Sequence record: PQ471516.1
Origin: Escherichia phage Turkey5
Reading direction: 5' to 3' (one strand)
Length of the DNA stretch: 64,000 bases
A program made the position numbers and the translations under genes. The notes below the pieces were generated by a model. That model was not told the DNA's origin and made no database searches. It saw nothing but the letters and a program-made list of their open reading frames with translations. This document shows positions 6,813 through 16,823 of this stretch, one piece after another (position 1 is the first letter of the stretch; every line of letters starts with the position of its first letter).

Positions 6813-9800
6813 TTAACTAAATTTTAATAAACGTTCTACATCCAATCCACTAATTGTCAAACTGTCTGTATAAACACTCAATTCAATTGGCAAATAGTTC
6901 TCACCATATTTCTTGAACTTATCAATGTTTCCTAAGTTCATGCCAGTAAATGTATATGTCTCATCTAGTTTGAAATCATGTTCCGCACTGTACATCGCAC
7001 CACGTAGTAAGTTATTTGCATTACGCACTTGGACTTTCTCGTAACCCAATGAAATAACATCATTCAGTGAAGCTGCTGCACCCGATAGAACATTATTGGT
7101 CACACTGTATGGGCTTACTGATGAAGGTTGTGAAACATAGGTCATATGTTCATTCTCAATCATCGTAATGCTTGTCACAGTACTGCCAACAGCGGTAATA
7201 TAAGCATTTGATACTAGTGGGTAGTTATACACCCAAACCCCGTCAGAATTACGTGTAGGTTCTAGTAAACCAACATCGTATTCAAACACGTTAATCTCAA
7301 CGCTATCAACCATTCTTGTTCTTACTAGTTCACTTAGAACACCAGAACCAGTAATAGGCAGATTATAGCCGTTATCGATTGTAACCCCGTCCACAACGAA
7401 AATTTCATTTGACACTAACCATAGGTCAATATCACTTGAAGTTATTCCGTCATTATATGAACCGTTATCTAATGTCGTGTCATAAAATACTTCGTATTTC
7501 ATTGCATCAATTGCATAGTTTCGGTTTTCTTCGTATAATTTAACTCCATTAACAACAAATTCAGGATCTGCGAATGTTCTAATACGAACTAGGTTCAGTG
7601 CTAGAGGCATTGCATGTTCACCAGCTTTGTTAGTAGTGATGTTATCAAACATCAGTACTGCACCAGTTGAATCCAGTAATTCAACAGTACCATTGGCTGT
7701 ATTATTGCGTACAGTGAATAGTTTAGGTGTAGTTCCTGTTTTGATTTTAGATACACTCAAGATGGTTTCCCATGTATCGTTTTGGTATCTTACAAAATCC
7801 TCACCATCAGTGGTGAAAATCATAACTTTATCCCCATTAGCTAATGAATTGTCTACTAACTTCATTTGACTTTGAGTTTGTACTGATTTCACTTGATAGA
7901 AGTATTTTTCATCATACTTATCTGTTGTTGCACTAATATCGTTAGATACTTTTGCGTATGAAGGAATACTAATAATTGCTTGTCCATAGTTGTAAGGGTT
8001 GATTAGAACCATACCTTCAACATGTAAGCGACTATTGTCACGTAGCTGAACTTGAGCAGCAGTATCAAAGCCATATCCATCAATCGTTACTCTGATTTGA
8101 CCGATATCACGTTCCGCTGGGTTCACATCACGAATATCAATGATATAAGGATCAACCTCATCGTCTTGTACTGACCATTTCATGGTAGCTGTTTGTGATT
8201 CTAGTGCTAGGTTATCGAAAGAGTTCATATCATTATAATATTTCGCACCTTCAATACCGTCTAGTATTTGTTTATAATCAGAATACATTGGATTGTTAAC
8301 ATCTTGCGGTAAATCATCCAAATTGATTTCAGCTAAACTAACAGCCTGACCAGTTGTGATGAAGATATCTTCGATGAAATCGTCAATACTTTGATTACGT
8401 GGAATACTAACAAACGTATCATTTACTTTAGCATATACATATTTTCTAGGAATCATAGTGAATGCATAGTTTTGTACAGAATTATTACTTAGTACTTCTT
8501 CGGCAATTTCATAATTATTGGAAGCATCCTTGTTAAACAAGTTACGCATACCAGTTAATACATGAACTGCGTCGGTGTAATATCTTCTTACTTCAATTAC
8601 AACTTCTTCACCATCTTCATCTTGAATTGTTTGTTCTTCCATGAACTTATACATGTAAACGCCGTATTCAACTTCTAGCTCAATTCTAACTTCCTCGTCA
8701 CTGAACGCAGGATTTGCAGTTTTAATCAAATCAACATATTTCTTATACAATTCACTGGATACTTCATAATAACCTAAGTTATAATCAGTACTGCTTGCGA
8801 AGCCAAACGGTAGACGAGTGCTTGGGTTGTCAGTGAAGGTCACTCCACTAAAACCACATCCAACTTCATCATGAATAACTTCATTACTAGCACCAGTGTA
8901 CAGCTTCAATCGGTTAGAAAGAGTGTTGTACTGAACATAATGTTTAACATCGTCAAACACTTCGTTATTTGTCGCTTCTGCATAAATGCGGTGAAGATTT
9001 TGGGTAAATTCTTCAGTTAGTGCTAAGTTATCAGAATTTTCTTTATACCAATCGTTAATTGCTTTAGCAGCACCCATTGTAATATTCATACTTGGATATA
9101 GAATTTGCATTTGGTATGCAACTTGTAAATCTAAAGTTTCTGAATTATTTTCAGGGAAGGTATAAATGAATCTTTGTAACTCAAAATCACTGACTACATC
9201 TTTTTCGTTACTTTGATACTTGTTGTTAACTGCATTTAGTACATCTAGGCTTGCCAAATCTTCATTTGGTTTACACTGAATGTTGTCATAATGCATAATC
9301 ACATCAATTTCTTGGAAACGTCTATTTGGTGTTACAAAATCGCTTGGCAATGAACCAATTTGTTCCCATCTCTGAGTAACATCACTAAACTGTGCGTATT
9401 CATAGTCCCAAATATCTTTTTCAGTTTTAACCCAAGAACCATCAACAAGAATATAGCCATTTGGATCGAGGTCGTTGCATAATCCTTTGATAACATCATC
9501 ATCTGATGTTTTCTGTTCAATCTGAGAACGAATCTTAGTTCTGTACGGTTTAACTTCTTCAAAGTACTCGACAATTTGATTAATCAAGTTATCGTTTGAA
9601 TAGTTCTGTACAAGAGATTGCTCTAGACCAATAATATAAATGTAAGATGTTTTGAATACCCAGTCCACAACACCCTGTTCAACGTGAACATACTTAACCA
9701 TATCAAATACTATTGTACTTTGATGTAAATCGAAAGAGTTTTTCAATAAAGCTAGTGCTTTACGAACGTTAATCTCTCTATTACTCAATGAACCACTTTC

Positions 9801-16823: not shown

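Follow-up and report, generated by a model that had tools for sequence, protein, structure and literature searches.

We analysed a 64,000-nucleotide (nt) stretch of Escherichia phage Turkey5 DNA (PQ471516.1), hereafter the window, with respect to its largest gene. This gene, referred to below as the giant, occupies positions 6813..16823 on the minus strand: 3,336 codons are followed by a stop codon at 6813-6815, and the product is a 380-kDa protein of 3,336 amino acids (aa). The giant is a real, single gene that is coding throughout and is under purifying selection along its entire length. Among the genes of a very large and environmentally widespread clade of jumbo phages, the giant is the largest; this clade is represented by 92 genome records of isolates and, at 50% identity, by at least 1,373 protein clusters.

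Reading frame and start codon

The minus-strand frame is uninterrupted from 16853 down to the stop codon and comprises 3,346 codons when counted from its first ATG (16851-16853), for which no Shine-Dalgarno-like site was seen in the sequence. The second in-frame ATG, at 16823, lies 7 nt after a GGAG ribosome-binding site (16831..16834, minus strand) that is visible in the sequence itself. Orthologues begin with the equivalent MTNNFKF, and for 121Q gp582 this is the start as annotated. Because of both the GGAG site and the orthologue starts, we consider 16823 to be the better start. Some gene callers use the ATG at 16851-16853, so that their product has 3,346 rather than 3,336 aa; cluster P0001 is an example.

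A frame of this length cannot be due to chance: at approximately 37% G+C, about 7% of random codons are stops, and by our own arithmetic the probability of 3,300 stop-free codons is approximately e^-235. The runner-up open reading frame (ORF) of the window encodes 1,153 aa. In comparison with 121Q, the ratio of nonsynonymous to synonymous substitution rates (dN/dS) is 0.065-0.16 in every 300-codon interval and 0.24 in the last 22 codons; because these values are low everywhere, the whole frame must be translated and constrained. The first-pass annotation of this DNA had described a single, uninterrupted ORF of ~10 kilobases (kb), exceptional in its size and encoding ~3,300 residues, and each part of that description holds.

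Family and relatives

The giant belongs to an already catalogued family. Over its full length the gene is 99.5% identical at the nt level to one that GenBank lists as a 'hypothetical protein' in Escherichia phage vB_EcoM_JNE01 (355 kb), and the family appears as 'virion structural protein' in both RefSeq and PHROGs. The match to PHROG 10938 extends from end to end (E = 0, 5,295 bits; residues 1-3333 against profile positions 1-3324 of 3324). The gene is ~80% identical at the nt level to those of the Asteriusvirus phages (121Q, PBECO4 and others) across its first 8.2 kb; the megablast alignment ends at 82% of the query because identity is lower in the last 1.8 kb. The possibility that this last 1.8 kb is a swapped host-range cassette was rejected, as the proteins are homologous to the end.

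A protein search recovered 59 clusters of 3,310-3,469 aa that are 43-100% identical to the giant. Alignment covers 99-100% of the giant for 56 of the 59, and for two (P0053 and P0056) it does so only as two collinear pieces. The giants of the Rak2-like phages (121Q gp582, PBECO4, RaK2 ORF070/gp465, GAP32 and CBB_236) align end to end with 43-82% aa identity within the group, are of the same size (3,310-3,346 aa), occupy the same place after a gp6-like gene and share the N-terminal module and scaffold blocks described below; nothing essential differs among them, and it is the C-terminal third that diverges faster.

Relatives outside of the Rak2-like group are 23-40% identical to the giant. They include Vibrio phage 2.275.O gp424 (3,771 aa), PA5oct gp355 (3,857 aa), Salicola phage SCTP-2 gp140 (3,807 aa), Atu_ph07 gp180 (4,449 aa) and Xoo-sp13 gp296 (3,245 aa), with further relatives in Sinorhizobium phage Phosso, XacN1, Stenotrophomonas CM1 and many metagenomic proteins of up to 5,371 aa. 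Distant members are 3,400-6,281 aa in length and have extra FG-GAP, CBM5/12, TIG, FCCH or BP74_N domains.

The 149-residue N-terminal module was turned into a profile and compared with 1.84 billion representative proteins (clusters at 50% identity). This profile matched 1,373 proteins at E <=1e-3 and 613 at <=1e-30. The module starts within the first 30 residues in 150/150 of the best hits listed (of 1,373 in total), and the module-bearing hits listed reach 6,281 aa in length, with a median of 3,424 aa. Short hits (139-1,948 aa) were considered as small homologues that might bridge the family to other proteins and were rejected: they are N-terminal pieces of giants, collinear with them and presumably truncated where a contig ends. 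With the C-terminal 467 aa as query, a word-indexed homologue search returned one fragment only. The literature searched contained no assignment of function or structure to the family, and no solved structure or tested function for any member.

Domain architecture and predicted structure

The protein consists of a conserved scaffold (residues 1-2450; 9474..16823, minus strand) followed by a variable C-terminal part. In a BLAST block map the scaffold resolves into blocks 1-149, 160-750, 759-1700, 1816-2134 and 2250-2450, which are collinear family-wide and are broken at fixed points by lineage-specific insertions. The first block is the N-terminal module (16377..16823, minus strand), the family-defining and most widely conserved part of the giant; its invariant or near-invariant residues include LP25-26, GYxG57-60, R80, YQ83-84, RL123-124 and Y147/W149. 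A near-invariant motif, EEVKPYRTKIRSQIEQ, is present near the other end of the scaffold at about residues 2421-2436. The main insertion hotspot falls at residues ~1700-1816 (11376..11726, minus strand), where distant relatives have up to ~1,200 extra residues, including FG-GAP repeats. The C-terminal region (residues 2451-3336; 6816..9473, minus strand) is clade-specific and faster-evolving: identity to 121Q is 47-72% here and 76-94% elsewhere, with dN/dS of 0.10-0.24. The C-terminal part of some relatives carries CBM_5_12, E1_FCCH and BP74_N domains; TIG domains occur in some relatives as well, recorded as occurrence only.

Searches of Pfam, NCBIfam and PDB with the single sequence, a 26-sequence full-length profile and the N-terminal-module profile gave no match (Pfam E <=0.1; PDB by phmmer and family profile), and no internal repeats were seen in self-comparison by dot-plot or blastp, a check that the first-pass annotation had suggested. 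A few polar residues are invariant (E1411, H1412 and H2055). Domain composition had been described as impossible to resolve by eye: sequence methods find no domain, and structure prediction provides domain outlines. AlphaFold2 models were made for residues 1-1200 and 2138-3336 from alignments of only 21 and 23 sequences, respectively. The first model is confident, with a mean predicted local distance difference test (pLDDT) score of 83.8 and a predicted template modelling (pTM) score of 0.79. It contains low-confidence helices at 1-56, a confident alpha/beta section at 57-150, a beta-rich section to ~600, a helical section at ~620-880 and alpha/beta structure to ~1175; no counterpart of this 1,200-residue model was found among solved structures. 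The second model is poorer (pLDDT 67.7, pTM 0.32) and shows well-predicted domains joined by uncertain linkers: a helical bundle (~2526-2654), alpha/beta and beta-rich domains and, predicted with confidence, a terminal beta domain (~3174-3336).

The N-terminal helices (residues 10-47) are of low confidence in the single-chain model. Low confidence in the first 56 residues is what one would expect if this segment acquires its fold only in contact with partners; the prediction is compatible with a three-chain bundle and is not diagnostic of one.

Presence in virions

That the giant is a virion protein, as had been suggested from the first pass, is known for Turkey5 only via the orthologues CBB_236 and PA5oct gp355. 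Mass spectrometry (MS) of CBB virions yielded 21 peptides of CBB_236, which is encoded beside the gp6-like gene of CBB, at 7.7% coverage (PMC5259590), and the record for PA5oct gp355 carries the note 'ESI-MS/MS'. A PA5oct protein designated gp128 in the old numbering is one of the two largest of that phage and is encoded beside the baseplate proteins gp129 and gp130 (PMC7318152); from this adjacency we infer that gp128 is the giant.

Gene neighbourhood

The genes upstream of the giant are on the same strand and encode, in order, a 243-aa virion protein, a gp53-like protein (PF11246; 26231-26542), a 712-aa virion protein, a gp5-like hub, a second lysozyme, a gp25-like protein (PF04965) and a 1,153-aa gp6-like protein. 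The hub (21403-24066, minus strand; 887 aa) has an OB-fold/DUF2345 spike, a weak M23-peptidase match and a C-terminal lysozyme. The separate lysozyme paralogue that comes after it (20876-21364, minus strand; 162 aa) matches the same profile region as the C-terminus of the hub. The gp25-like wedge and sheath-initiator gene (20467..20862, minus strand; 131 aa) is identified by Pfam GPW_gp25 (E 2e-7) and phrog_43. The gp6-like wedge gene (16905..20366, minus strand), whose product is the proposed partner of the giant, matches phrog_10646 and phrog_219 ('baseplate wedge subunit', E 1e-22), with a weak match to TIGR02243; its small family profile aligns with T4 gp6 in hhalign (E 0.0016 over 304 columns). 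The statement in the first-pass annotation that the giant follows gp25-like and gp6-like genes is borne out by the GPW_gp25 and phrog_219 matches, with the correction that 'follows' here means lower coordinates, because the minus strand encodes the giant.

The gp25-like, gp6-like and giant genes recur as a triplet in 121Q, RaK2, PA5oct, Atu_ph07 and Xoo-sp13. The same triplet is found in two metagenomic contigs, the giants of which are 23-29% identical and the gp6-like gene of which carries DUF8360. The gp6-like and giant genes are adjacent in EJP2, where the stretch examined shows this pair only and not the gene preceding it. The SCTP-2 giant is preceded by another very large gene, gp141 (at least 3,096 aa; L009:1-6163), which may be an expanded gp6-like protein, giving two consecutive giant wedge genes. 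In relatives that are not Rak2-like, the giant is followed by a gene for a ~200-aa protein (phrog_11259) and then by fibre-type genes, including Collar, Gp34_trimer plus Peptidase_S74, and a gp10-like gene in PA5oct. The order around the giant in these distant relatives mirrors both the T4 order 6-7-8-9-10-11-12 and the P2 order W-J-I-H.

Proposed role and comparison with known wedge proteins

The reading that we favour, with a probability of roughly 55%, is that the giant is a low-copy structural protein of the tail baseplate that occupies the slot of gp7 in T4, gpI in P2 and TssG in type VI secretion systems (T6SS), with an anchoring N-terminus, a scaffold and an outward-facing periphery. 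The N-terminal module (residues 1-149, preceded by flexible helices), which we propose as a docking element to the gp6-like/gp25-like inner wedge, would anchor one copy of the giant per wedge, or six copies in all, to an inner wedge that comprises two gp6-like chains as well as the gp25-like and gp53-like proteins. The conserved scaffold of ~2,450 residues would then build the peripheral baseplate as one chain, and the insertion hotspots and fast-evolving C-terminal third would face outward, where they might dock separately encoded fibres and/or touch the cell surface. By analogy with the gp7-like 'hotspot' of extracellular contractile injection systems (PMC8894135), these outward parts may relay binding to the sheath trigger. 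An exposed periphery is suggested because relatives insert FG-GAP, CBM_5_12, E1_FCCH and BP74_N domains at fixed hotspots or in the C-terminal part, and because the C-terminal third evolves fastest.

Gene order is shared with the gp7/gpI/TssG class: the giant family lies after gp25-like and gp6-like genes and before fibre genes. Like T4 gp7 (1,032 aa), the giant is a large, multi-domain virion protein encoded directly downstream of a gp6 homologue, in a module with gp53-, gp5- and gp25-like genes; unlike gp7, it is three times longer. T4 needs separate gp8, gp9, gp10 and gp11 proteins, none of which were found in the Turkey5 window. The smaller components of this type (P2 gpI, Mu gp48, T6SS TssG and the gp7-like part of Afp12/Pvc12/Alg12) occupy the same slot after gp25-like/gp6-like genes and before fibre genes. 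In these, the peripheral part that binds fibres is a hotspot of evolution, which matches the pattern of hotspots and decorations of the giant, and the gp7-like part has been described as a re-engineering hotspot binding different fibres in the AlgoCIS paper (PMC8894135). They differ in being ~150-900 residues in length and in having no sequence similarity to the giant (no Pfam match at E <=0.1). Peripheral baseplate proteins of phiKZ and Staphylococcus phage 812 (e.g. PHIKZ087 and PHIKZ027) gave noise-level scores, and there is no sequence relationship between these and the giant.

Several results weigh against membership in the gp7 family. Pfam domains PF21428, PF21456 and PF21427 are present in all 120 T4 gp7 relatives listed, and none of the three is found in the giant at Pfam E <=0.1. 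Tiled profile comparison, an approach recommended with the first-pass annotation, was run in hhalign with seven overlapping tiles of the giant family and the N-terminal module against a 27-sequence gp7 profile, and the E-values were 0.15-0.79; the same procedure, used as a control, recovers the relationship of the gp6-like family to T4 gp6 reported above. Comparisons with single T4 gp6, 7, 8, 9, 10, 11 and 12 sequences gave probabilities <1%, and the models of the giant have no fold similarity to solved gp7 or other wedge proteins. Because the giant has neither a gp7 Pfam domain nor a profile-profile signal while the control finds gp6, membership in the gp7 family is not supported. In favour of the gp7 slot for the giant, a gp7 hidden Markov model searched across the window detected no gp7-like protein elsewhere. 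The earlier suggestion that the giant replaces the gp7-like wedge and fibre proteins of T4 is reasonable with respect to position, given the gene order, and is not supported with respect to homology. Functional equivalence with gp7 is suggested by where the gene lies, by its virion and baseplate setting and by how the N-terminus behaves.

A more specific version of the favoured reading can be put forward only tentatively. In this version, the family would be a structurally new, single-chain peripheral baseplate, unrelated to T4 gp7-gp11, that is placed on the universal gp6/gp25/gp53 inner wedge by a previously undescribed 149-residue module present in at least 1,373 clusters from jumbo and huge phages, with fixed hotspots for lineage-specific sugar-binding or adhesion domains.

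Alternative explanations

The strongest alternative, which we nevertheless consider unlikely, is that the giant is an extra peripheral or 'outer ring' component of the baseplate and that the gp7/gpI role belongs to another protein, such as that of phrog_11259. The failure to find gp7 homology or fold similarity in the giant fits this explanation. The phrog_11259 gene occurs in 92 phage records, as many as the giant does, and is directly after the giant, or is the next substantial gene, in PA5oct, Atu_ph07, SCTP-2 and the two metagenomic contigs. It encodes a conserved virion protein, the PA5oct copy of which has been detected by MS, and at ~200 aa it is similar in size to P2 gpI (176 aa). However, the protein itself shows no similarity to the gp7, gpI or TssG families, and no Pfam or PDB relative was found for it. 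Linkage is also not tight: in Rak2-like phages the gene (gp576 in 121Q, L001:31893-32501) is ~7 kb from the giant on the other strand, and for Turkey5 it is placed just left of window position 1 (115532-116095 in JNE01). It is the giant, and not phrog_11259, that is invariably adjacent to the gp6-like gene. We regard the phrog_11259 protein as a candidate partner of the giant or a candidate for the true gpI-like protein. Fusion of phrog_11259 to the C-terminus of the giant in Rak2-like phages was also considered and was rejected, as there is no hmmsearch or hhalign signal and 121Q gp576 is a separate gene.

It is improbable that the giant is a tail fibre or receptor-binding protein, that is, a long trimeric fibre built from one chain, as the first-pass annotation had offered in its alternative of a multi-domain fibre. 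The protein lacks internal repeats, and both of its models are globular and mixed alpha/beta, with the first 1,200 residues (pTM 0.79) not predicted as an extended fibre. PDB comparisons gave no beta-helix, triple-helix or coiled-coil matches, and separate fibre genes are present. Full-length identity is 43-80% across phages of Escherichia, Klebsiella, Cronobacter, Erwinia, Pectobacterium, Serratia, Yersinia and Xanthomonas, unlike that of host-specific receptor-binding proteins. The C-terminal third is not swapped according to host; it is homologous throughout (47-72% identity to 121Q) and can be aligned down to members that are 43% identical.

Even less probable is that the giant acts as a tape measure, is ejected as an internal protein or serves as a virion enzyme. 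The size of the giant is comparable to that of the N4 virion RNA polymerase (~3,500 aa), a few polar residues are invariant (those listed above), and the EJP2 orthologue (EJP02_232) is labelled 'D-alanyl-D-alanine carboxypeptidase'. This label has no Pfam, NCBIfam or PDB support and looks like an annotation error that could propagate; the searches of these three databases gave no sequence match of any kind, polymerases and peptidases included. The models are not predominantly helical, with DSSP showing abundant beta structure, and another gene is annotated as the tape measure in Atu_ph07. By our own arithmetic, a helix of 3,336 residues at 1.5 Å per residue would span ~500 nm, in contrast to the ~123-nm tail of CBB (PMC5259590).

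The explanation that the giant is an artefact, in which several genes have been fused by assembly or sequencing errors, is effectively refuted: 2-9 fragments are annotated at this locus in a few GenBank records (CMSTMSU, SD-1_S14 and SD-6_S16), but these are of low quality (that of CMSTMSU bears the flag 'UNVERIFIED', and fragmentation extends to the gp6-like and ClpA genes of this phage), while every good-quality record inspected has a single annotated coding sequence, the clusters of 3,310-3,469 aa number 59 and are independent at 90% identity, and dN/dS relative to 121Q is low everywhere. With respect to the collapsed frameshift or internal stops in other isolates about which the first-pass annotation had cautioned, tblastn with a 1,691-aa core matched 92 phage records, of which 72 cover at least 80% of this core in one place.

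Implications

The gene, its family and its presence in virions are already on record, so the finding is not new, and the function of the giant is one that we still infer. Residual interest lies in the existence of a very widespread family of giant baseplate-module proteins that is without structural or functional assignment, at the position where a contractile tail couples host recognition to firing. With a baseplate structure from any family member, one could see whether these phages obey the universal (gp6)2-gp7 wedge rule. The same structure would show where branched fibre systems such as those of RaK2 and phiK64-1 are docked, which bears on host-range engineering of therapeutic jumbo phages.

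Other features of the locus

Three terminator-like hairpins are found on the minus strand in this region. The first (20439-20462), with a T run, comes after the gp25-like gene; the second (16876..16897), with a UUCG loop and a T run, lies between the gp6-like stop codon and the giant; and the third (6784..6809), with an 11-bp stem and a T run, is directly after the giant stop codon. The number of hairpins around the module is not above that expected from shuffled sequence. After the UUCG hairpin, the sequence CATAAATA (16867-16860, minus strand) is one base off the T4 late-promoter box TATAAATA.

In 121Q, an HNH homing-endonuclease gene, gp584 (L001:10721-11485), is located between the gp25-like and gp6-like genes; the corresponding region of Turkey5 (20367-20466) is a 100-nt spacer with a hairpin. 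A gene for a ClpA-like AAA+ ATPase (phrog_4871; 4493-6778, plus strand) converges on the 3' end of the giant, an arrangement that is also seen in 121Q, RaK2 and EJP2 and is not seen in PA5oct, Atu_ph07 or Xoo-sp13. Near the left end of the window, an ORF at 51-1040 (plus strand) matches only positions 39-366 of phrog_14394, a virion structural protein (121Q gp577), and is probably cut by the window start.

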